DNA of 49,748 nucleotides from an uncultured Hyphomicrobiales bacterium (lineage in GTDB: Bacteria > Bacteroidota > Ignavibacteria > Kapaibacteriales > UBA2268), in contig CAZCLJ010000003.1 of assembly GCA_964499465.1 (NCBI GenBank), positions 1-49,748 on the forward strand, written 5' to 3'. This document shows positions 3,177 to 20,416 of the stretch, one piece after another. Positions within the stretch are counted from its first letter, which is position 1; each line of letters opens with the position of its first letter. The translations under genes were made by a program, and so were the position numbers. Under the pieces are notes generated by a model, which saw nothing but the letters and a program-made list of their open reading frames with translations, had not been told where the DNA came from and did no database searches.

Positions 3177-3309
3177 TTCCCAAATTCAGCAGCTTGTGAA
3201 TGTTTTTTTTTAATTAAATCTTTCTGCTTTGCTTTTATTGAAAAAATGTTTAATTTGTTTATTATATTTTGTGTTATAAATTATGTATTTTTATTAAATT
3301 AATAATAAA

Positions 3310-3516
3310 ATGAATACAGCATATTTACAAATTCCACAATCTGCAGTAATTGATTTTTTGCATACTCTTCCCCGTGAACAAATATTGGATATTTTTGATA
3401 ATTTACTTGTCTATTCTGATGATTCAGCATTAACAAATGAAGAAAAAGATGCTCTAAACATTTCAATGAAAGAACTTGAGGAAGGTGAGTTAATAAATTG
3501 GGAAGATATAAGATAA
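3310..3516 (+). CDS. putative antitoxin of RelE/ParE module
   Basis: 68-aa acidic ORF overlapping the downstream RelE-like ORF by 19 nt, a typical type II TA arrangement. Confidence 0.55.
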   Translation: MNTAYLQIPQSAVIDFLHTLPREQILDIFDNLLVYSDDSALTNEEKDALNISMKELEEGELINWEDIR

Positions 3517-3746
3517 AATTTAGCAAATCTGCAACAAAACAATATCTGAATTTACCTTTAAATTATAAACAAATTGTTGACAATACTTTAAAGAAATTTC
3601 AAGATAGAATTCCTGTTGATATAAAACCAATTAAATCAACTGAAAATTGCTATAGAATTAGAATAGGTAGATATCGAATTCTACTTTTCATTGAAGAAGA
3701 CAACGTTATAATTTCTGAAATTGATACAAGAAGTAATGTTTATTAG
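3498..3746 (+). CDS. RelE/ParE family toxin
   Basis: 82 aa. YKIKFSKSATKQYLNLP at the N-terminus and YRIRIGRYRILLFIEEDNVIISEIDTRSNVY at the C-terminus match the RelE/ParE signature. Confidence 0.7.
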   Translation: MGRYKIKFSKSATKQYLNLPLNYKQIVDNTLKKFQDRIPVDIKPIKSTENCYRIRIGRYRILLFIEEDNVIISEIDTRSNVY

Positions 3747-3793
3747 AGTAGGAGATAAAGTACGCTGTGTCTCTACGTTTTGTTATACGCTTT

Positions 3794-4132
3794 TTAAAAA
3801 TGAATGTTGTTGATTAGGTCGTCAAAAGAATATTTATCATAAAAAACTATGAGACGAAAATATAACTCATTGAGATTAATTTGTTTACTTACAATTATAC
3901 CAAAGTGTTTTTTTCCAGTTTCTATATATTTTGAATATAAATTAACAAAATCTGCAACATTGAAAGTTACAATGCATCGTTGTTCAGAAATTGCAAATTC
4001 TAACTGCTCATCGTCAGTGAGACCTTTACGGTTTGCTTCGTCAATATGAATAGCATCAATATCACGTTTTCTCAAAGCAGCAGCACATTTTAAAGGAGTA
4101 TCTTCATCAAGCAAAAACTTCAACTTTTTCAT
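3794..4132 (-). CDS. DUF5615-type PIN-like putative toxin
   Basis: 112 aa. MKKLKFLLDEDTPL...DIDAIH...GLTDDEQLEFA..E.RCIVTFNVADF fits the DUF5615 (Mut7-C/PIN-like) pattern. It overlaps the upstream DUF433 ORF. Confidence 0.65.
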   Translation of the reverse strand: MKKLKFLLDEDTPLKCAAALRKRDIDAIHIDEANRKGLTDDEQLEFAISEQRCIVTFNVADFVNLYSKYIETGKKHFGIIVSKQINLNELYFRLIVFYDKYSFDDLINNIHF

Positions 4133-4433
4133 CGCTTAACTCCGATATGGCTTTCATTTCTGCAACTTTTTTTTCCCAATATTCAATATCATTATTATAA
4201 TCATTTTCCTTATCAATTTCTTCCTGATTGTCGAAATAGTATGCAAGTGCAGAAAATACCTGAGCAGGTTCAAGTGATGGATAATTGAGTAATATTTCAT
4301 CAATACTTTGCCCCATTTGATAAAATGCAGCAATAGTTCTTACTGGTATTCTGGTTCCCTCAATTATTACAGTGCCATCTAATATCTTGGAATTTTTAGC
4401 TAAATATGGGTATATTTCCATTACTAAATTCAT
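4107..4433 (-). CDS. DUF433 domain protein (antitoxin-like partner)
   Basis: 108 aa. ILDGTVIIEGTRIPVRTIAAFYQMGQSIDEILLNYPSLEPAQVFSALAYY is the DUF433 signature. It overlaps the DUF5615 ORF by 26 nt. Confidence 0.7.
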   Translation of the reverse strand: MNLVMEIYPYLAKNSKILDGTVIIEGTRIPVRTIAAFYQMGQSIDEILLNYPSLEPAQVFSALAYYFDNQEEIDKENDYNNDIEYWEKKVAEMKAISELSDEKVEVFA

Positions 4434-4496
4434 AAAATTTAAATATATAACAATAAATAAACGAATTATTAATATTATTATTTCAAAATATATATC

Positions 4497-4532
4497 AGCT
4501 ATTAGCTGTCAGCTAACGGCTGTTGGCTTTTT
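4497..4532. repeat. cassette-boundary repeat X, partial copy 3
   Basis: cagctattagctgtcagctaacggctgttggctttttt matches the 3' part of copy 2. Confidence 0.7.
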
Positions 4533-5279: not shown

Positions 5280-6470
5280 TCACTGTTGTAAAGCAGCTAT
5301 ACCGGGAAGTTCTTTGCCTTCAAGAAATTCAAGTGAAGCGCCTCCACCAGTTGAAATATGAGTAATTTTTTCTTTTAAATGCATTTGAATCACGGCTGCA
5401 GCTGAATCTCCACCACCGACAATGCTTATAGCGCCCTTATGAGTTGCATTGGCAAGAGAATTTGCAATTGAACGGGTGCCTTTGGAAAATTTATTCATTT
5501 CGAACACTCCCATAGGACCATTCCAGAAAATTGTTTTGGATTTTGTAATTTCATCAATGAAGATTTTTTGAGTTTCTTCTCCGATGTCCATACCCATCCA
5601 ATCTTTCGGCATTTCATTAAATTTAACGGTCTTTGCGTTGGCAGTATCTGAAAAAGCATCAGAAACAACCACATCAACAGGCAGTAATAGTTTTACATTA
5701 TTACTTTTTGCTTCCTGAATGAGTTCTTTAGCAAGTTCGATTTTGTCTTCTTCGACAATAGATTTTCCAATTTCATAACCCATTGCTTTAAAGAAGGTGT
5801 ACATCATTCCACCACCTAAAATAATTGTGTCGCATTTAGTCATCAGATTACGGATAACATCAATTTTTCCTGAGATTTTAGCGCCACCAATTACGGCGGT
5901 AAACGGATGAACAGGATTAATAATGGCTTTGCCGAGATATTCAATTTCATCAAGAAGTAATTTACCTGCATATTTTTCATTGAAAAATTTAGCTACTTCA
6001 AAAGTACTTGAGTGAGCGCGGTGAGCAGAACCGAATGCATCGTTAACATAAACATCAGCAAGTGATGCAAGCTGTTTTGCAAATTCATTGTCATTCATTT
6101 CTTCTTCTTTATGGAAACGCAGATTCTCAAGCAATACGATACTGCCGGCATCAGCTATTCGAATTGCATCAAGAGCTGGTTTCCCTATACAATCCTTAGC
6201 AAAATGAACTTTAAAACCGTATCTTTTTTTCAATACTTCTGCAACAGGACGAAGCGAGAATTTTGGATTCGATTCTCCTTTGGGTCTCCCTAAATGAGAC
6301 ATAACTATTGGCAAGCCACCATCGTCAATAATTTTATCTATCGTTGGGAGCGACTCGCGTATGCGGTTGTCATCGGTTACTTCTAAATCTTGATTCAGAG
6401 GAACGTTAAAATCTACTCTAAGCAGGACTTTTTTACCCTCAAACACTGTATCGTATATTGATTTTATCAT
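5280..6470 (-). CDS. pgk: phosphoglycerate kinase
   Basis: Full-length match to the PGK pattern (KKVLLRVDFNVPL, MSHLGRPKG, IGGAKISGKI, WNGPMGVFE, STGGGASLEFLEG). The start is probably the MIKSIYD Met, since the ORF track extends 5 codons further to 6485. Confidence 0.95.
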   Translation of the reverse strand: MIKSIYDTVFEGKKVLLRVDFNVPLNQDLEVTDDNRIRESLPTIDKIIDDGGLPIVMSHLGRPKGESNPKFSLRPVAEVLKKRYGFKVHFAKDCIGKPALDAIRIADAGSIVLLENLRFHKEEEMNDNEFAKQLASLADVYVNDAFGSAHRAHSSTFEVAKFFNEKYAGKLLLDEIEYLGKAIINPVHPFTAVIGGAKISGKIDVIRNLMTKCDTIILGGGMMYTFFKAMGYEIGKSIVEEDKIELAKELIQEAKSNNVKLLLPVDVVVSDAFSDTANAKTVKFNEMPKDWMGMDIGEETQKIFIDEITKSKTIFWNGPMGVFEMNKFSKGTRSIANSLANATHKGAISIVGGGDSAAAVIQMHLKEKITHISTGGGASLEFLEGKELPGIAALQQ

Positions 6471-6642
6471 ATATTTGAATAGCATTATTAAACATACTAT
6501 TACTAATATATAAAATTTTTTTCAATTTAAAAGAACAAAAGTTATTTTTTTGAAAATAATTATAATTTAAAAATCAAATTAATGGCATATATTTTGATAA
6601 TTTTGTAATTGAAATAATGAATTGATTATAAATGGAAAATTT

Positions 6643-7593
6643 ATGACAATAAATGAAGATTATACCATTATCGGGATTGATGGTGGCGGTACAAAGACAA
6701 GAGGAGTTCTTTATAGAAGTAATGAAATTATTGCAAAATCCAATTCCGGAACTACTCGTATAGGAGCGGTTGGGGTTGGCGAATCTTGCGAAAGATTGCT
6801 TAATGTAATTGCTGATTTATGTATTAGAGCAAATATTGATAGTTCCGAAATAGATGCAGTTGTAGTTGGTTTAGCAGGGGTCTGGTTAGATGAAGAAAAG
6901 AAGCGTTCAACTCAACTCATAAAAACTTTAGCACGAACCCAAAAAATGTATCTTAATGACCTTATTGTAACAAGCGATGCCGAATTAGCACTTGAAGGAG
7001 CTTTTGAAGGCGACCAGGGAATTGTAATGATTGTTGGTACTGGTTCGATTGCGATTGGCAAAGTTGGCAAAAACCAATTGATTAGATGCGGTGGATGGGG
7101 TATCGAACTTGATGATGAAGGTAGTGGGGCTTGGATTGGGCGCGAAGGGCTTACTGCAATTGTCAGGGCTCTTGATGGCAGAGGAAATAATACAACTTTA
7201 ACTAAAGTATTCACTGAGCTTTATCCTTCCAGTATTGATATTAAAGAACCCAGAACTATTGTTAAAGCATATTCAGACAGAGTTTTTGAATATTATATGC
7301 TTTCTCCTTTAGTGATGAAATGTGCAGAAGAAGGGGACCCGGTTTGCCTCGAAATAATTCAAAAAGCTGCTTTTCATCTGATGGAACTTCTTGAAACTTT
7401 GCAAAAGAAATATAAAACTCAGCAAGTTAAAGTAGCATTACTTGGGGGTATTATTGAAGCAGATACTATTCTTGCAAAAATGCTTGAAGATAATATAGCT
7501 ATTAATCCGAAATTTAAACGAATTGACGCTAAAAGAAGTGCATTAGATGGTGCTATTGCTATAGGGAAGCGGCTTATTTCTGAAATGGAATAG
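6643..7593 (+). CDS. BadF/BadG/BcrA/BcrD-type ATPase, N-acetylglucosamine kinase-like
   Basis: IIGIDGGGTKTRGVL phosphate-1 motif, VGTGSIA and WG..LDDEGSGAWIG motifs of the ASKHA/COG2971 family. I prefer the ATG at 6643 over the TTG at 6622. Confidence 0.8.
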   Translation: MTINEDYTIIGIDGGGTKTRGVLYRSNEIIAKSNSGTTRIGAVGVGESCERLLNVIADLCIRANIDSSEIDAVVVGLAGVWLDEEKKRSTQLIKTLARTQKMYLNDLIVTSDAELALEGAFEGDQGIVMIVGTGSIAIGKVGKNQLIRCGGWGIELDDEGSGAWIGREGLTAIVRALDGRGNNTTLTKVFTELYPSSIDIKEPRTIVKAYSDRVFEYYMLSPLVMKCAEEGDPVCLEIIQKAAFHLMELLETLQKKYKTQQVKVALLGGIIEADTILAKMLEDNIAINPKFKRIDAKRSALDGAIAIGKRLISEME

Positions 7594-14480: not shown

Positions 14481-15749
14481 TTAATCGATATATTCAAAAC
14501 CGCAATAAGGAACTAAAACGTCTGGAACGCGAATTCTTCCGTTTTCGTAGTATTGCTCTATGATTGATACTATTAGGCGGGACGTAGCAAGCCCGCTTCC
14601 ATTTAAGGTATGAACAAATTCCGGTTTAGAACTTGGAGTTCGCTTAAACCTAATAGCTGCTCTTCTTGCCTGAAAATCTTCAAAGTTAGAGCAACTGGAA
14701 CATTCCAACCATTTTTTTTCTGCTTGCGACCAACATTCCAAATCATAAGTCTTAGCACTCGAAAAACTTGTATCGCCCGAGCAAAGAGAAAGTACTCTAT
14801 AAGGAATTTGTAGTGCCTGAAGAATTTCCTCAACATCAGCAACAAGCAATTCCAATTCATTATAAGATTCTTCTGGCAAGCAAAGTTTGACAAGTTCTAC
14901 TTTATTGAATTGATGAACTCTTAAAAAGCCGCGTGTGTCTTTTCCATAGCTGCCAGCTTCACGACGAAAACACTGAGTAAAACCGCATACTTTGGTAGGA
15001 ATTTCTTCTACTTTCAAAATTTCGTTTGAAAAGAAATTGGTTAGTGGAACTTCAGCTGTTGGAATTAAATACAAATCATCTTTTTCGATGTAATACATAT
15101 CTTCAGCGAGTTTTGGGATTTGCCCTGTTCCGACCATAGAATTGCGATTAACAACAAGAGGTGGGATTAGTTCAGTGTAGCCGTGCTTTTCGATATGTAA
15201 ATCAAGCATATAATTAATTAAAGATCGCTCAAGTTTGGCACCCTTTCCAATATAATAAGCAAAACCAGCACCTGTAACCTTTGCGCCACGCTCAAAATCA
15301 AGTATGTTCAATTCTTTTGATATTGCAAGGTGGTCTTTGTAATTTCCATCAACTTTGGGGCTGCCCCAGTTGCGAACTTCAATATTATCTTCTGCTGTTT
15401 TTCCTATTGGCACGCTGTTATGAACCATATTTGGTATTTTTAGCTGCAAATTGAAAAGTTCCTGCTCAATTTCACGCAATTCATCATCAAGAATTTTAAT
15501 TCTATCTGAACATTCCTTCATTGCCTGGATTTTGTCGTCTGCATTTTCTTTTTGCCTTTTAAGCATTGCTATTTCATTAGAAACGACATTGCGGACATTT
15601 TTTAGCTGCTCAACTTCCAAAAGGTTTGCGCGCCTCTTCGAATCAACATCCATTATTTGTTCTACGACTTCGCTTGTTTTTTCATTTTTGTTAAGAATAT
15701 TTTGCTTAACGTTCTCACTATTTTCTCTAATAAATTTTAAATCTAACAT
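14481..15749 (-). CDS. serS: seryl-tRNA synthetase
   Basis: N-terminal coiled-coil arm followed by class II motifs (FRREAGS.G.DTRG..R.HQF.KVE, GSGLA.SR). Confidence 0.95.
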   Translation of the reverse strand: MLDLKFIRENSENVKQNILNKNEKTSEVVEQIMDVDSKRRANLLEVEQLKNVRNVVSNEIAMLKRQKENADDKIQAMKECSDRIKILDDELREIEQELFNLQLKIPNMVHNSVPIGKTAEDNIEVRNWGSPKVDGNYKDHLAISKELNILDFERGAKVTGAGFAYYIGKGAKLERSLINYMLDLHIEKHGYTELIPPLVVNRNSMVGTGQIPKLAEDMYYIEKDDLYLIPTAEVPLTNFFSNEILKVEEIPTKVCGFTQCFRREAGSYGKDTRGFLRVHQFNKVELVKLCLPEESYNELELLVADVEEILQALQIPYRVLSLCSGDTSFSSAKTYDLECWSQAEKKWLECSSCSNFEDFQARRAAIRFKRTPSSKPEFVHTLNGSGLATSRLIVSIIEQYYENGRIRVPDVLVPYCGFEYID

Positions 15750-15778
15750 ATTTTCTTTGTTTAAATGTATTTGAAAAA
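15732..15778. repeat. 47-bp direct repeat, copy 1 (native serS start region)
   Basis: aaattttaaatctaacatattttctttgtttaaatgtatttgaaaaa includes the serS ATG and its first 6 codons on the minus strand. Confidence 0.9.
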
Positions 15779-15781
15779 TAT

Positions 15782-16042
15782 TTATACGTATTCAAATTGT
15801 AAATTCACTTTATAACCTAAAGATAAAATTATTTCCTCGCAATCTTCCCATGTTAGACCGAATGCTTTAACATCGGAGAGTCCTATTCTGGCAATTATAT
15901 CTCTTATTAAATCAACATCCTGAGCATCGAATTCAGCTTCCATAAAGGATAGCTCAGCCCAACTTACTAATTCAGAAAGTGAAATGCGATGAGTAAGATA
16001 TTGCTTAATTTTGTTAAATATTTCATATTTAGTAATTTTCAT
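15782..16042 (-). CDS. hypothetical small protein (second gene of 2-gene cassette)
   Basis: 86-aa acidic ORF with a 4-nt ATGA-type overlap with the upstream ORF. No family recognised. Confidence 0.45.
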   Translation of the reverse strand: MKITKYEIFNKIKQYLTHRISLSELVSWAELSFMEAEFDAQDVDLIRDIIARIGLSDVKAFGLTWEDCEEIILSLGYKVNLQFEYV

Positions 16043-16284
16043 TTTACCTCCTTATGACCTTTATCAATTGGATATTTTTCATGAATTTCTACTAATTCAT
16101 CATATTGATTATAAATTTCCTGATAAAATTTTAATGTTGTTTCAACTTCATTTACTTCTTTTACATATCTTGCTTTCCAACCATATTTATCATCAACTTC
16201 ATAATAATAGATTCTTCCACCATTATCTAATTCATACCAATTAATGAATTTTTTTTCGTTTTCAAGTCTTTTCTTTTCAAACAT
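16039..16284 (-). CDS. hypothetical small protein (first gene of 2-gene cassette)
   Basis: 81-aa ORF translationally coupled to 15782-16042. No family recognised. Confidence 0.45.
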   Translation of the reverse strand: MFEKKRLENEKKFINWYELDNGGRIYYYEVDDKYGWKARYVKEVNEVETTLKFYQEIYNQYDELVEIHEKYPIDKGHKEVK

Positions 16285-16322
16285 AATTATTGACTTATTA
16301 TTTCACTTTATTATTTTATTCA

Positions 16323-16369
16323 AAATTTTAAATCTAACATATATTCTTTGTTTAAATGTATTTGAAAAA
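16323..16369. repeat. 47-bp direct repeat, copy 2 (orphan serS start region)
   Basis: It has one substitution relative to 15732-15778. On the minus strand it reads MLDLKF and then a stop. Confidence 0.9.
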
Positions 16370-16474
16370 AAACAAATTTACTAATTTTTTAAAATATAAG
16401 GTTAAGATAATTAGAGAAAAATTACTAATTTGAAAATTAGAAGAAGTCAATTTGAGAAGAAAAATAGAAGATTT

Positions 16475-17458
16475 ATGAAATTAGAAAATAAAAAATACAA
16501 TACTGTGATTGAAAAGAATACTTTTTACTTTTTTAATAAGGACTTTGAACAGCAGTATGAAGGATATATCAATTCATTAAAGGAAACATTACTTCTTTTA
16601 AAAAATGAAACAGAAAATAACGGATTTACAAAAGAAGTTTTTGAAAAGTTTTTATTTGAAAAAGAATATGGATTAAAAGCACTTTTAGCTTTAACTGGTT
16701 TTTCAAATGAATATTTTAAAAGACTAATCACTATCATTCGTATTTTGAATGATAAAGAGTTAAATAGGTTAATTTTAAAAGATAATTGGAACATAAATGA
16801 AAAATCTAGTTTTGAAAGCATAAGTGAGTGGTCAGACAATAAAATTGAGAACTTAATAAAAGAAAATGAATTTTTTAGAAAAGGCATTGTTAATCTGTTC
16901 TTTGAAGGGGCTACTATTCCATTTTTGACAAAAACAATTCCTTTATTTGAACTAAAAAAATTAAGTTTATCTAAACTTAAATTTGAAATTCCTGAGATGA
17001 TTGACACTTTAATCCGTTATAAGGAAAAAGGTTCTTATAACGGAAAAATAGAAAATAATCCAGAAACATTAATTAAATCAATTTTAAATGAGCTTAGTGT
17101 TGAGTTCGAGAAAGGAGATTTAACTGAATTAGTAACAGACGCTCCAGATAAAAAGCGAACAATGGATTTTATCATTCCAAACAAAACAAATCCAAGAATT
17201 ATTATTGAATATTCTTATCTCGTAACAACTTCCTCTGGTCAGGGAGATAAATCTAAAACTGAGATTTCAATAAATTCACTAATTACTCAGCACTATCCAA
17301 AAGCGAAGTTTATTGGCTTCGTTGATGGAATTGGCTGGTATGTTAGGAAAAAAGATTTAGAACGAATGGTAAATGCTTATTTTGATGTTTTTACTTTTCA
17401 CAATGATGAATTAGAGAGATTTGTAAAATTTATTAAAAAGGAGTTGAAAATTGTTTAA
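16475..17458 (+). CDS. putative type II restriction endonuclease
   Basis: The C-terminal MDFIIPNK..PRIIIEYSYLVTTSSGQGDKSK resembles the D..(E)x(K/S)...GSK nuclease core of some type II REases. The stop overlaps the start of the first methyltransferase. I prefer the ATG at 16475 over the TTG at 16430. Confidence 0.5.
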   Translation: MKLENKKYNTVIEKNTFYFFNKDFEQQYEGYINSLKETLLLLKNETENNGFTKEVFEKFLFEKEYGLKALLALTGFSNEYFKRLITIIRILNDKELNRLILKDNWNINEKSSFESISEWSDNKIENLIKENEFFRKGIVNLFFEGATIPFLTKTIPLFELKKLSLSKLKFEIPEMIDTLIRYKEKGSYNGKIENNPETLIKSILNELSVEFEKGDLTELVTDAPDKKRTMDFIIPNKTNPRIIIEYSYLVTTSSGQGDKSKTEISINSLITQHYPKAKFIGFVDGIGWYVRKKDLERMVNAYFDVFTFHNDELERFVKFIKKELKIV

Positions 17459-18434
17459 CGACCTAATTAATAAAATACATCAGGGCGATTGCTTAGAGCT
17501 TTTCAAACAGATACCAGATGACTCTGTTGATATTGCTTTTGCAGACCCACCTTTTAATTTAAATAAAAAATATAATAATAATAAAGATAAATTAAAAATA
17601 AAGGAATATCTTAACTGGTGCAGAAAATGGATAAATGAAATGGTTCGGGTAACAAAGCCGAGTGGTTCTATTTTTGTTCACAATATCCCAAAATGGCTGA
17701 CTTACTATTCTTCATTTCTCAATGAAATTGCGTATTTCAAGCACTGGATTAGCTGGGATGCAGCAACAGCGCCAATGGGAAAAACCTTGCAACCAGCACA
17801 CTATGGTATTCTTTTCTATACAAAACAGCCCCAAAATTTTAAATTCTACGAAGTTAGATGTCCTCATAAAAGAGCTCGAAAATCAAATATTTTAGCAAAA
17901 GATTATGGTGGGAAAAAAAGTTTGCTTCACCCATTTGGACCATTGGTTTCTGATGTTTGGACTGACATTCACCGCATTAAACACAATAAATACAGAGACG
18001 AGCATCCTTGCCAATTACCGATTCATTTGTTGGAAAGAATCATCTTGCTATCAACAGATGAAAACGATATAGTGCTTGACCCATTTAACGGAACTGGGAC
18101 AACAGCACTTGCTGCAAAGCGTTTGGGTAGAAACTTTATAGGATTTGATTTAAGCCAGGAATATATTGATATAACTAACTCGAAATTATCCAAGGAATTA
18201 TCAAATTCAAAAATTGGAGAAAAATGGGTAAGTTTTTATCTTAACCAAGTAGTTACTTTAAGGAATGATGATTGGGATTATTTAAAAGATTTCTTTTTTA
18301 TTCCAAAAAATCCAGTTGATATTGATACAATACAAATAATGCTAAAATCAAAAATTAAGCATATTCCAAATAAGAAAAACGGAAGTTCTGAAATTTCAAA
18401 CGAAAATCAAACTGCATTTTTATTTCCGGCTTAA
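17451..18434 (+). CDS. beta-class N6-adenine/N4-cytosine DNA methyltransferase, copy A
   Basis: Motif IV FADPPF near the N-terminus and motif I DPFNGTGTT near residue 210, the permuted order of PF01555-type enzymes. The TTG start overlaps the R gene stop. Confidence 0.9.
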   Translation: MFNDLINKIHQGDCLELFKQIPDDSVDIAFADPPFNLNKKYNNNKDKLKIKEYLNWCRKWINEMVRVTKPSGSIFVHNIPKWLTYYSSFLNEIAYFKHWISWDAATAPMGKTLQPAHYGILFYTKQPQNFKFYEVRCPHKRARKSNILAKDYGGKKSLLHPFGPLVSDVWTDIHRIKHNKYRDEHPCQLPIHLLERIILLSTDENDIVLDPFNGTGTTALAAKRLGRNFIGFDLSQEYIDITNSKLSKELSNSKIGEKWVSFYLNQVVTLRNDDWDYLKDFFFIPKNPVDIDTIQIMLKSKIKHIPNKKNGSSEISNENQTAFLFPA

Positions 18435-18442
18435 TTTTATAT

Positions 18443-19378
18443 ATGAATGAAAACTACATAAATAAAATTATAAATGACGATTGTTTGAATCATCTTTCGA
18501 ACTTGGAAGAAAATTCAATTGATTTGTTTCTGTCGGATATTCCTTACGGGATTTGCCTTGACGATTGGGACGTTTTACATAATAATACAAATTCTGCATT
18601 GCTCGGCACTTCTCCAGCTCAAAACGGGAAAAATGGATTTAAAAGACGTGGCAAACCAATTAATGGGTGGAGTTCGGCTGATAGAAATATTGGGAAAGAA
18701 TATCAGGAATGGGTGCAAAAGTGGTCAGATATGCTTTTTCCAGTAATGAAAGAAGGGGCTTTTCAATTTGTTTTTGGTGCAAGAAGGACAATTCACAGAG
18801 TTATAAATGCTTTTGAAAATTCTGGATTTCTTTTAAAAGATATTTTAGCTTGGAAAAAGCCATCTGCTCACCATAGGGCTCAAAAATTTTCTAACATTCT
18901 GCAAAATAGAGGACTTGAAGAAGAAATTGAAATATGGAATGGTTGGCGGCTTGGCAATTTAGCTCCTATTTATGAACCGATTGCTTGGTTTTTCAAGCCA
19001 TATAAAATAACTATAACTGATAATATCTTAAAATATGGAGTTGGCGCTATTAATACTGAAGATTGCAAAATAAACGGAGCAAGCCCAACAAACTTATTGG
19101 AATTTGGTTTTTCAAAAAATGAGAATAGATTTCACGAAGCTCAGAAACCATTAGAATTAATTGAATTTTTAATTAAATTAACTACTCGTGAAGAACAAAT
19201 TATTCTTGACCCATTTATGGGAAGTGGAACAACAGCATTAGCAGCTAAAAGGTTAAACAGAAAGTTTATTGGCTTTGAAATTAATGTAGATTATTACAAT
19301 GCTGCAATAGATAGAATTGAACAAAATAATTCTTCATTATTTTTTAATGGATTAGAAAAAGAATGTAGCTTGTTCTGA
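18443..19378 (+). CDS. second, distinct beta-class DNA methyltransferase
   Basis: Motif IV-like LSDIPYG at the N-terminus and motif I DPFMGSGTTALAAKRL near the C-terminus. Outside these motifs it is only distantly related to copies A and B. Confidence 0.85.
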   Translation: MNENYINKIINDDCLNHLSNLEENSIDLFLSDIPYGICLDDWDVLHNNTNSALLGTSPAQNGKNGFKRRGKPINGWSSADRNIGKEYQEWVQKWSDMLFPVMKEGAFQFVFGARRTIHRVINAFENSGFLLKDILAWKKPSAHHRAQKFSNILQNRGLEEEIEIWNGWRLGNLAPIYEPIAWFFKPYKITITDNILKYGVGAINTEDCKINGASPTNLLEFGFSKNENRFHEAQKPLELIEFLIKLTTREEQIILDPFMGSGTTALAAKRLNRKFIGFEINVDYYNAAIDRIEQNNSSLFFNGLEKECSLF

Positions 19379-19412
19379 ACTGATTTAATAATTCAAGATT
19401 TTCTATCTAACA

Positions 19413-20396
19413 ATGTTTAACGACCTAATTAATAAAATACATCAGGGCGATTGCTTAGAGCTTTTCAAACAGATACCAGATGACTCTGTTGATATTGCTT
19501 TTGCAGACCCACCTTTTAATTTAAATAAAAAATATAATAATAATAAAGATAAATTAAAAATAAAGGAATATCTTAACTGGTGCAGAAAATGGATAAATGA
19601 AATGGTTCGGGTAACAAAGCCGAGTGGTTCTATTTTTGTTCACAATATCCCAAAATGGCTGACTTACTATTCTTCATTTCTCAATGAAATTGCGTATTTC
19701 AAGCACTGGATTAGCTGGGATGCAGCAACAGCGCCAATGGGAAAAACCTTGCAACCAGCACACTATGGTATTCTTTTCTATACAAAACAGCCCCAAAATT
19801 TTAAATTCTACGAAGTTAGATGTCCTCATAAAAGAGCTCGAAAATCAAATATTTTAGCAAAAGATTATGGTGGGAAAAAAAGTTTGCTTCACCCATTTGG
19901 ACCATTGGTTTCTGATGTTTGGACTGACATTCACCGCATTAAACACAATAAATACAGAGACGAGCATCCTTGCCAATTACCGATTCATTTGTTGGAAAGA
20001 ATCATCTTGATTTCAACTGATGAAAACGATATAGTGCTTGACCCATTTAACGGAACTGGAACAACAGCACTTGCTGCAAAGCGTTTGGGTAGAAACTATA
20101 TTGGATTTGATTTGAGTCTGGAATATATTGATATAACTAACTCAAAATTATCCAAGGAATTATCAAATTCAAAAATTGGTGAAAAATGGGTGAGTTTTTA
20201 TCTTAACGAAGTAGTAACTTTAAGAAATGATGATTGGGATTATTTAAAAGATTTCTTCTTTATACCCAAAAATCCAGTTGATATTGATACAATTCAAATA
20301 TTGTTAAAATCAAAAATTAAGCATATTTCAAATAAGAAAAATGGAAGTTCTGAAATTTCAAATGAAAATCAAACTGCATTTTTATTTCCGGCTTAA
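19413..20396 (+). CDS. beta-class DNA methyltransferase, copy B (near-identical to 17451-18434)
   Basis: 327 aa with 6 aa differences from copy A. It has an ATG start and its own upstream spacer. Confidence 0.9.
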   Translation: MFNDLINKIHQGDCLELFKQIPDDSVDIAFADPPFNLNKKYNNNKDKLKIKEYLNWCRKWINEMVRVTKPSGSIFVHNIPKWLTYYSSFLNEIAYFKHWISWDAATAPMGKTLQPAHYGILFYTKQPQNFKFYEVRCPHKRARKSNILAKDYGGKKSLLHPFGPLVSDVWTDIHRIKHNKYRDEHPCQLPIHLLERIILISTDENDIVLDPFNGTGTTALAAKRLGRNYIGFDLSLEYIDITNSKLSKELSNSKIGEKWVSFYLNEVVTLRNDDWDYLKDFFFIPKNPVDIDTIQILLKSKIKHISNKKNGSSEISNENQTAFLFPA

Positions 20397-20416
20397 TTTA
20401 TTAGAATTATTTAATT

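Follow-up and report, generated by a model that had tools for sequence, protein, structure and literature searches.

Type II toxin–antitoxin modules are known to occur inserted in host operons, as in relA-mazEF-mazG and dinB-yafNOP (Fraikin et al. 2020, PMC7167474), and a review of these systems states that the chromosomal integration of toxin–antitoxin modules 'remains unelucidated' (PMC7167474). Insertion with long target duplication has been described for restriction-modification systems (Nobusato et al. 2000 Gene 259:99; PMC2853133), where Furuta et al. 2010 looked for a repeat of more than 30 bp and an insert of less than 20 kb without mobility genes (PMC2853133). The repeats in these cases often span translation starts or stops, and examples of 46 and 47 bp are listed (PMC2853133). 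Such long duplications have not been reproduced in published experiments (PMC3031569).

The serS cassette that we describe here, in a 49.7-kb stretch of DNA (the window), shares with the restriction-modification insertions a long, locus-specific repeat (47 nt, compared with 46 and 47 nt in H. influenzae and T. thermophilus; PMC2853133) and the existence of an empty-site genome, and like them it has no mobility genes, no inverted ends and a repeat spanning a translation start. It is unlike them in being far smaller, a 544-bp unannotated gene pair, and in parting an essential gene from its promoter. In common with relA-mazEF-mazG and dinB-yafNOP, it is a small coupled bicistronic module of patchy distribution with an undisturbed empty site in related strains, and it is placed, as operon-inserted type II modules are, between a promoter and a housekeeping gene. 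In contrast to those two modules, the serS cassette keeps its integration footprint, the 47-nt duplication, and it further differs from type II modules in that its two proteins, A81 and B86, fall outside the known families, with the putative neutraliser standing second and lacking a DNA-binding domain.

A two-gene insertion with target duplication at serS

The serS gene of the window (14481..15749, minus strand) is intact and encodes a seryl-tRNA synthetase of 422 aa, with the Pfam domains Seryl_tRNA_N and tRNA-synt_2b, that is 98% identical to the SerS of a Candidatus Kapaibacterium sp. Its 5′ end belongs to a direct repeat of 47 nt, at 15732-15778 and 16323-16369, in which 46 of the 47 positions match and whose edges are sharp, the flanking bases differing at both sides. 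The proximal copy (15732..15778, minus strand) holds the functional serS leader (29 nt) and the start of the gene, and is identical to the empty-site sequence of the relatives described below. The distal, orphan copy (16323..16369, minus strand) holds the serS leader, the ATG and five further codons; it aligns with the single copy of the empty-site genomes L005 and L006, and the sole mismatch between the copies, at 16342, lies within it and is specific to the window lineage. Read from the sequence, the distal copy opens a mini-ORF, MLDLKF-stop (16320..16340, minus strand; codons ATG TTA GAT TTA AAA TTT TGA), whose stop codon TGA is the first three bases of the insert. An earlier note on this DNA had described a 47-bp duplication with one substitution around two coupled ORFs, together with the orphan MLDLKF-stop, and every detail proved correct on re-reading.

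The inserted DNA comprises 544 bp (15779..16322, minus strand) and consists of 38 nt before A81, the A81 and B86 genes, and 3 nt past the B86 stop; exactly two ORFs, of 81 and 86 aa and both on the minus strand, lie between the repeat copies. Its G+C content is 26%, against 37% for serS. The junctions are blunt, and the ends of the insert share no microhomology with the target. No terminal inverted repeats were found in the 544 bp, nor any integrase or transposase, the two ORFs having no Pfam, NCBIfam or PHROG match. An IS element or transposon was rejected, given the lack of a transposase and of inverted ends and a duplication of 47 nt here and of 27–140 nt elsewhere. Like integron toxin–antitoxin cassettes, the serS cassette is small, promoter-less and probably served by an upstream promoter, and one homologue (L090) lies in an array of structured repeats; unlike them, it has neither an attC-like element nor an integron integrase, and its repeats are host target sequence. 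The lack of an attC-like element led us to reject the integron reading for the window: no more than 3 nt separate the B86 stop from the target copy, and the region of the window is devoid of an integrase.

The possibility that the 47-mer belongs to a dispersed repeat family was also checked. With up to three mismatches allowed, the 47-mer is found at two places in the 49.7-kb window, a number that 100 dinucleotide-preserving shuffles failed to reach even once; the 10.8-kb L001 likewise carries two copies, so that the repeat is confined to this pair in both sequences.

The filled structure was found in four independent assemblies (L001–L004), and it is therefore not an assembly artefact. In the sister strain, L001, the cassette is present and the repeat matches at 47 of 47 positions. 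The cassette is absent from L005 and L006, with 98% SerS identity, where one 47-nt copy runs into serS, and from the outgroup L007, with 84% SerS identity, where one copy is continuous with serS; it is also absent from at least 70 further serS loci. The empty sites of L005–L007, taken together with the perfect repeat of the filled L001, establish that 544 bp were truly inserted here and that 47 bp of target were duplicated, and this bears out the earlier proposal of an insertion for which an empty site should exist in related genomes. The same proposal would have been weakened by relatives carrying the two genes without the duplication; the close relatives that have the cassette all have the duplication as well.

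In a four-taxon comparison the filled alleles form a single derived clade. The insertion of this promoter-less two-gene selfish cassette dates to the ancestor shared by the window strain and L001, a Kapaibacterium-like bacterium. The cassette came to lie with the serS promoter on one side and the serS coding region on the other, and the target that it duplicated is essentially the whole serS 5′ leader and the first six codons. Owing to this 47-bp duplication, serS retains an intact translation start, and the orphan MLDLKF-stop start remains behind the promoter.

The reverse history, in which the filled state is ancestral and L005, L006 and L007 lost the cassette through precise recombination of the 47-nt copies, is very improbable. 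The exactness of the empty sites and the ability of 47-nt direct repeats to mediate precise deletion would fit such a history, but at least three independent precise losses would be needed, including one in the 84%-identity outgroup L007, and all of the other serS loci, at least 70 in number, are without the cassette. Moreover, the repeats match at 46/47 and 47/47 although the two filled strains differ by 5% in their flanks, and by 7–8% from L006, and the G+C content of the insert is 10 points under that of serS.

As for the origin of the inserted cassette, a donor was not found: the nearest cassette outside the species is ∼70–75% identical at the protein level, and among the four nearest cassette relatives none adjoins serS and none has flanking repeats. 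The fragmented Logan contigs, from bioreactor and wastewater metagenomes, contained no informative joint for an empty allele or a circular form.

The A81–B86 gene pair

A81 (81 aa, 16039..16284, minus strand) and B86 (86 aa, 15782..16042, minus strand) overlap by the ATGA of a stop and a start codon at 16039-16042, and the sequence AAGGAGG, read as the Shine-Dalgarno of B86 (16047..16053, minus strand), lies inside the 3′ end of A81. A81 and B86 form a small, adjacent, co-oriented and coupled pair, as type II toxin–antitoxin genes are, with neither a recognised toxin superfamily nor a DNA-binding antitoxin among their products. The same 4-nt overlap was seen in 34 metagenome loci, where it is the commonest junction, and 79 of 80 loci have both genes. 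The pair has a patchy distribution that crosses phyla, at 55–75% identity, and its neighbourhoods are enriched in ParE, MazF, HicA, HepT and TumE modules.

Both families are widespread and without annotation. A word-indexed search returned 127 homologues of A81, and B86 has 69. A profile search of 1.84 billion representatives extended A81 to at least 429 clusters at 50% identity, all of them small proteins, and revealed no fusion proteins of either A81 or B86. No family match was obtained for A81 in Pfam, NCBIfam, PADLOC, PHROG or PDB with single sequences and profiles, nor for B86 in Pfam, NCBIfam, PADLOC, PHROGs or PDB. The earlier remark that neither protein has a nameable family therefore stands, since sequence, profile and fold searches all ended without a significant match.

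The AF2 model of A81 (pLDDT 91) has one N-terminal helix and a six-stranded sheet, for which Foldseek searches of PDB and BFVD gave no fold match with E < 0.05, and no sequence or fold match places A81 in a recognised toxin superfamily (RelE/ParE, MazF, PIN, HicA, Doc and others). Invariant polar residues of the family are Y26, Y40, K42, Q55, E66, H68 and K70. The median pI of the A81 family is 8.7, but the member encoded in the window departs from this in being acidic (pI 5.4). A81, being sheet-rich, basic across the family and full of invariant polar residues, thus appears to be a toxin candidate.

The AF2 model of B86 (pLDDT 90) is all-helical, with five helices, and the B86 family is acidic (median pI 4.6). 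ImmD came out as the top fold match of B86 (TM 0.53, E 4.7) but, like the SnoaL-like matches, lies below significance and was set aside. No HTH, RHH, AbrB or Phd match pointed to a DNA-binding domain in B86. Compared with L001, B86 has a pN/pS of 0.11, which indicates purifying selection. Helical and acidic, B86 may be the candidate antitoxin or immunity protein that neutralises A81, produced via coupled translation.

On these features of sequence and predicted structure, A81–B86 is probably a toxin with its neutraliser, both unannotated. The layout resembling a toxin–antitoxin or immunity pair, to which the earlier note drew attention, is reinforced by the strict pairing (79/80 loci), the charge pattern of the families and the toxin–antitoxin neighbours. 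The arrangement recalls colicin D–ImmD and barnase–barstar, in which the toxin comes first, as the candidate toxin does here, and is followed by a small acidic helical partner; it is unlike them in that there is no significant similarity and A81 has no secretion or delivery domain. Searches at family and fold level found no resemblance of A81 or B86 to a known toxin, antitoxin or DNA-binding fold.

Flanking repeats at other loci and the route of insertion

At 12 of 62 loci A81–B86 is bracketed by locus-specific repeats of 21–140 nt, while such repeats occur in 6 of 1,269 control windows (odds ratio 50, p = 5e-13), and a conservative count still leaves 8 of 58 loci (p = 2e-8). The target-duplication count excludes L090, whose repeat is dispersed and structured, and L120, where it is a 21-nt G+C hairpin; in L125 and L121 the repeats are paralogous coding sequence, and these two loci were set aside. 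Among the targets duplicated elsewhere are the 3′ end of a tRNA-Ala, the start of a gene together with 11 codons, and the 3′ ends of genes. The control windows that do carry repeats hold ParE, PIN and Gp49/HigB-type pairs, a Uma2 gene and a methyltransferase; two reviews do not mention such a flanking-repeat signature around the classical pairs (PMC3874152, PMC7167474). That A81 or B86 catalyses its own insertion is unlikely, because unrelated classical pairs bear the same footprint. About 80% of the A81–B86 copies elsewhere, the four nearest relatives included, have no detectable flanking repeat, which implies that the long duplication is either short-lived or one route among several.

These counts bear on a more modest reading of the locus, in which the structure is real but A81–B86 is a small accessory operon, serving stress or defence or consisting of a regulator and its partner, and the duplication is a by-product of illegitimate recombination. 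The lack of homology of either protein to any toxin or antitoxin, together with the absence of a PADLOC match, speaks for it, as do the lack of a DNA-binding fold in B86 and the fact that most copies are without repeats. Against this, the genes are strictly paired, translationally coupled and patchy across phyla, they are located inside toxin–antitoxin islands, and they have the flanking-repeat signature in common with classical ParE, PIN and HigB pairs. We consider such an accessory operon unlikely, if still a serious contender, and prefer to read A81–B86 as an addiction pair.

A different reading of the repeats themselves is that they are the attL and attR sites of a miniature integrative element, with a tyrosine or serine recombinase encoded elsewhere and the 47 nt as the shared core. 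This could be argued from L124, where a 36-nt repeat accompanies the pair and the site, the tRNA-Ala 3′ end, is a classic integrase target, and from L090, where A81–B86 stands within structured 122-nt repeats resembling a cassette array; Furuta et al. themselves put tRNA cases aside as possibly site-specific (PMC2853133), and the L090 array suggests a different, recombinase-driven route. However, at least eight different repeat sequences of 27–140 nt surround the same conserved cassette, and a site-specific system would require for every one of them a matching core within the element. The 38 nt before A81 and the 3 nt after B86 in the serS insert are unlike the target, and no integrase was found within 4–10 kb at any inspected locus. 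We regard att sites as an improbable source of the serS repeats.

The insertion with long target duplication agrees with the restriction-modification cases in that the repeats align to a single copy in insert-free relatives (L005 and L006, and more distantly L007), the duplication exceeds 30 bp (47 nt, matching at 46/47 in the window and 47/47 in L001), and the insert, at 544 bp, is below 20 kb and free of mobile-element genes; it departs from them in its cargo, which is A81 and B86 rather than restriction and modification homologues. Two routes can be envisaged. In one, fill-in of two single-strand breaks spaced by 47 nt would have followed the joining of the fragment; in the other, the fragment would have linked two sister copies whose breaks lay at a distance of 47 bp. 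In either case the joining would be done by host functions, and addiction would then select the rare integrants. The best joint explanation, which we hold to be rather probable, is the insertion of a 544-bp addiction pair with a long target duplication by host functions, with read-through into serS.

Restriction-modification genes also lie next to the cassette, outside it and divergent from it. A restriction endonuclease, with its likely ATG at 16475, is followed by three methyltransferases (16430..20396, plus strand): M1 (17451-18434, plus strand), M2 (18443-19378, plus strand) and M3 (19413-20396, plus strand), a 97.6% copy of M1. M2 is thereby flanked in the window by two full 986-bp M1 copies, and this orphan methyltransferase has a structure like that of the restriction-modification insertions. 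In L006 the restriction-modification system is present without the cassette. The earlier note had linked the serS duplication to a similar one at the methyltransferase end; that link holds in part, as M2 does sit between M1 copies, but the short repeat of the relatives is a deletion remnant of the second M1 copy.

The putative serS promoter and the meaning of the cassette

A putative −7 box of the Bacteroidetes type TAnnTTTG, TAAATTTG, lies at 16373..16380 (minus strand), 3 nt upstream of the distal copy. Among 34 related serS loci, 16 have such a box 26–63 nt before the serS ATG, and all 16 fall in the 19 closest (L005–L018 and L023–L025); the expectation is ∼0.05 per locus (p ∼ 1e-12). In the window the serS box adjoins the distal repeat copy only, and TAnnTTTG occurs neither in B86 nor in the 32-nt gap between B86 and serS. 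A second match, TATGTTTG, at 16278-16285, overlaps the A81 start codon. No terminator-like site was found in the 1-kb region scanned. Among the promoter scans only the comparative test at serS was informative, the sigma-70 scan giving background level and the window-wide test for TAnnTTTG enrichment upstream of genes being negative. The earlier placement of the cassette between promoter and serS agrees with this conserved box, which lies beyond the distal copy only.

Because the conserved box stands 3 nt outside the upstream copy, serS is probably transcribed through the cassette, as judged from these sequence comparisons. The serS gene would then be the third cistron of a transcript from the old serS promoter, an arrangement that would tie the expression of the cassette to an essential housekeeping promoter and in which imprecise deletions would endanger serS. 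The A81–B86 pair itself may resist loss in the manner of a toxin–antitoxin module.

The serS locus provides a clean before-and-after pair, with two genes, 544 bp, exact junctions and no mobility gene. Here the duplication, by regenerating the leader and start of serS, would allow foreign genes to come under an essential gene's promoter with no harm to that gene. The occurrence of the same footprint at A81–B86 and at classical toxin–antitoxin pairs of unrelated genomes extends the restriction-modification phenomenon to a broader range of selfish cassettes, and the question of how such modules integrate becomes open to survey and test. In addition, A81 and B86 represent two widespread small-protein families with confident predicted folds and without annotation or structural relatives.

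Tentatively, ParE, PIN and HigB pairs, orphan methyltransferases, Uma2 and A81–B86 might all use a shared, recombinase-independent route, with A81–B86 as a new toxin–immunity family of new folds. If this possibility were true, the route would duplicate from tens to more than 100 bp of target, so that promoter-less cassettes could enter the ends of genes, even essential ones, and leave them unbroken. The cassettes would in this way capture host promoters, and at serS one such recent event would have been preserved as a natural snapshot.

A two-gene insertion ahead of serS

The serS gene (422 aa, Seryl_tRNA_N and class II core; minus strand, 15749 to 14481) starts inside one copy of a 47-nt direct repeat, whose two copies, at 15732-15778 and 16323-16369, are equal at 46 of 47 positions. 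Given the position of serS, the proximal copy comprises the ATG with the five codons after it, preceded by 29 nt of leader; in the distal copy the frame, ATG TTA GAT TTA AAA TTT, continues into TGA. The intervening DNA holds two ORFs on the minus strand, A81 (81 aa, 16284..16039) and B86 (86 aa, 16042..15782), which overlap by ATGA, with AAGGAGG 4 nt ahead of the B86 start. Re-reading the sequence bore out the factual statements of an earlier note, namely a 47-bp repeat with one substitution, two coupled ORFs and an orphan MLDLKF-stop frame. That note had also considered a dispersed repeat family, of which there was no sign within the window: with up to three mismatches allowed, the 47-nt pattern matches exactly twice, a count reached by none of 100 dinucleotide-preserving shuffles.

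We compared filled and empty alleles of this site. Searching with both small proteins identified L001, a sister strain whose versions are 98% and 95% identical to them and whose repeat copies are equal at 47/47 positions; three Logan contigs carry identical small proteins, and all four share the layout of the window. A SerS scan of species-representative genomes placed the host among Candidatus Kapaibacterium-like Bacteroidota. Two relatives with 98% SerS identity, L005 and L006, have the same restriction enzyme upstream of serS, accompanied in L006 by both methyltransferases, and lack the A81 and B86 genes at their serS loci. In alignment, their single 47-nt copy is continuous with serS, and the sole difference from the filled alleles is the 544 bp plus the second copy. 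L007 (84% SerS identity), with other upstream genes, likewise has a single copy, so that the empty site sought by the earlier note is present in three relatives. None of the remaining serS loci examined carries the cassette. With very high confidence, these alignments point to an insertion that duplicated 47 bp of its target; the earlier observation is thereby confirmed, and the interpretation given to it is supported. Since the filled strains are mutual closest relatives (serS DNA identity ∼95% between them, 92–93% to L005 and L006), the parsimonious reading is that the cassette was gained once, in their common ancestor. The insert junctions are blunt, showing neither microhomology nor terminal inverted repeats, and the G+C content is 26% in the insert versus 37% in serS.

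Between the window and L001, just two nonsynonymous changes separate the 246-nt A81 genes (16039-16284 vs 6424-6669), far below the 4–5% divergence of B86, serS, M1 and M2 (Poisson p = 4e-4); the restriction gene diverges by 2.4%. Either a recent recombination tract reaching from the 5′ part of the restriction gene through A81 or an unusual DNA- or RNA-level constraint on A81 may account for this. Separately, several MAGs labelled ‘uncultured Hyphomicrobiales’ (L005, L008, L010, L012, L014, L015) have SerS 63–98% identical to that of the Kapaibacterium-like host, and L005, at 98%, equals the figure of a MAG labelled Candidatus Kapaibacterium sp.; these taxonomic labels look wrong.

In the neighboring methyltransferase region of the window, M2 (18443-19378) lies between two full M1 copies (17452-18437 and 19414-20399). 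These 986-bp copies are 97.6% identical and extend from base 2 of the start codon to 3 nt beyond the stop. L001 (3280-3336) and L006 (2915-2969) keep only the last 55–57 nt of the second copy, joined at an 8-nt microhomology, GTTCTGAA, found both at the end of M2 and at the 3′ end of M1, for which reason both strains look like deletion derivatives. Because the window and L001 group as sisters by serS but are unlike at M1/M2, either two identical deletions or between-strain recombination would be needed.

A81 and B86 as a putative addiction-type pair

The earlier note could name no family for either protein, and this holds: neither matches Pfam, NCBIfam, PADLOC, PHROGs or PDB sequences, by single sequence or profile. 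Homologues of both are numerous, all unnamed (41–75% identity), in Nitrospirota, Bacteroidota, Chlorobiota, Bacillota, Verrucomicrobiota and an archaeal MSBL1 bin. When 1.84 billion representatives were searched by profile, 429 A81 clusters emerged, all small proteins without fusions. The confident AlphaFold models predict one helix and six strands for A81 (pLDDT 91) and five helices for B86 (pLDDT 90), and Foldseek found nothing significant for either in PDB or BFVD. Invariant polar residues of A81 are Y26, Y40, K42, Q55, E66, H68 and K70, with the motif EIHEKYPxDKGH.

B86 lies directly downstream of A81 in 79 of 80 metagenome loci found with A81, the exception being cut off by a contig end, and the junction seen most frequently is an overlap of 4 nt. 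Family-wide, A81 proteins are basic (median pI 8.7) and B86 proteins acidic (4.6), but the A81 encoded in the window departs from this in being acidic. B86 shows purifying selection between the two filled strains (pN/pS 0.11). The pair has no constant partner; the 25 most frequent neighbor families contain no integrase, ParE, MazF, HicA and DUF5615/DUF433 genes occur among the neighbor families, and two of the nearest relatives of the pair sit inside obvious toxin–antitoxin islands. Together, the pairing, coupling, family pI contrast, purifying selection and neighbors argue with moderate confidence for an addiction-type pair, A81 being the putative toxin and B86 the putative neutralizer.

Proposed transcription of serS through the insert

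In the empty allele, ∼134 bp separate serS from the divergent restriction gene. A TAnnTTTG box (Bacteroidetes-type -7 element) lies 26–63 nt ahead of the serS ATG in 16 of 34 serS loci, all 16 within the 19 closest (L005-L018, L023-L025), against a chance expectation of ∼0.05 per locus (p about 1e-12). In the window, the putative serS box, TAAATTTG (16373-16380, minus strand), falls 3 nt outside the distal copy, so the duplicated segment would match the transcribed leader plus six codons nearly exactly, leaving the promoter out. Neither B86 nor the stretch ahead of the proximal copy contains such a box, and no terminator-like site was found in the 1-kb region scanned. Transcripts of serS would then still start at the old promoter and pass through the orphan mini-ORF, A81 and B86, a read-through that we infer with moderate confidence. 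Preservation of the 29-nt leader would account for the tolerance of this insertion.

Five Ignavibacteria-/Melioribacter-like relatives (L026, L029, L035, L038, L048) lack a TAnnTTTG box upstream of serS and conserve the motif TAYAAYATYGTRGT within ∼60 nt upstream, which suggests another promoter or regulatory element in that clade.

Route of insertion and recurrence of the footprint

Insertion with long target duplication is already known for restriction–modification genes, so this kind of event is not new. Furuta, Abe and Kobayashi list cases with 46- and 47-bp repeats, cases in which the repeat extends across a translation start or stop, and cases with orphan methyltransferases (PMC2853133). 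The serS cassette has the same structure, with repeats over 30 bp that align to an empty site and an insert without mobility genes, and departs from their definition only in its cargo, A81 and B86 instead of restriction–modification genes. The geometry requires both strands of the 47-bp target as templates, leaving two possible routes: a fragment could be joined at nicks 47 nt apart, followed by fill-in, or joined between sister copies with breaks 47 bp apart. Blunt junctions speak for end-joining rather than template switching, though any physical mechanism is proposed with low confidence; published experiments did not reproduce long duplications (PMC3031569).

Flanks of the pair were searched for same-strand upstream/downstream matches (E below 1e-6). 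Repeats flank 12 of 62 loci compared with 6 of 1,269 control windows (p = 5e-13), or 8 of 58 once redundant and doubtful cases are dropped (p = 2e-8). The repeat differs at every locus, each time being local sequence: the final 36 nt of a tRNA-Ala gene (L124), the ATG and 11 codons of the epimerase gene directly downstream of B86, mirroring the serS case (L157, L160), the 3′ ends of upstream coding sequences (L085, L164), and otherwise non-coding sequence of 30–117 nt. In each interpretable case the invaded gene keeps an intact copy. No flanking repeat is seen in some 80% of copies, the four nearest relatives among them, so the footprint either decays or marks just one of several routes.

Several loci have more complex histories. 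The L160 epimerase gene was invaded twice, by A81-B86 at its start (35-nt repeat including the ATG, 234-268/1157-1191) and by a ParE-type pair inside (46-nt repeat, 1337-1382/2282-2327), its 5′ part persisting as a short ORF; L157 has the same structure. In L090, four copies of a 122-nt structured palindromic repeat (186-307, 891-1012, 1760-1881, 2761-2882; DNA fold z = -5.3) separate small cassettes, namely A81-B86, a ribbon-helix-helix-like ORF (by eye) with a PIN-like ORF, and one more ORF. This looks like an attC-type or REP-type array, without a clear GTTRRRY core, and its structured repeats and PIN pair point to a different route there. Repeats around a PIN pair (L100, 3194-3259/4009-4074) and a Uma2 gene (L104, 2509-2550/3268-3309) are built from CACGGAA-type heptad units and may reflect insertion into, or recombination between, a dispersed repeat rather than target duplication. 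In L035, a Melioribacteraceae MAG (serS 3234-4508), an HTH and Gp49/HigB-like pair just downstream of serS sits between two 97% identical 140-nt copies (4147-4286 and 5329-5468) of internal serS coding sequence (codons 305–353), with restriction enzyme and M1 homologues (67–68% identity to the window's) 1–2 kb beyond; this geometry is not that of a simple target duplication.

The six control matches were more than noise: between their repeats lie a PIN pair, a PhdYefM-ParE pair, a Gp49/HTH pair, a Uma2 gene, methyltransferase M2 and an unclassified segment (L152), and an earlier scan gave two further ParE pairs with flanking repeats. In the reviews consulted, long target duplications are ascribed to restriction–modification systems only (PMC3874152), and one describes the integration of toxin–antitoxin modules as unexplained (PMC7167474); in the accessible literature, we found no report of this footprint for toxin–antitoxin pairs. 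What is new here is the cargo, an unannotated family of two genes whose predicted folds are novel, the position of a very small cassette between an essential gene and its putative promoter, and the same footprint around classical toxin–antitoxin pairs. As the footprint is common to unrelated addiction-type cassettes, an activity of A81 or B86 is disfavored as its source, which argues instead for host processes and selection.
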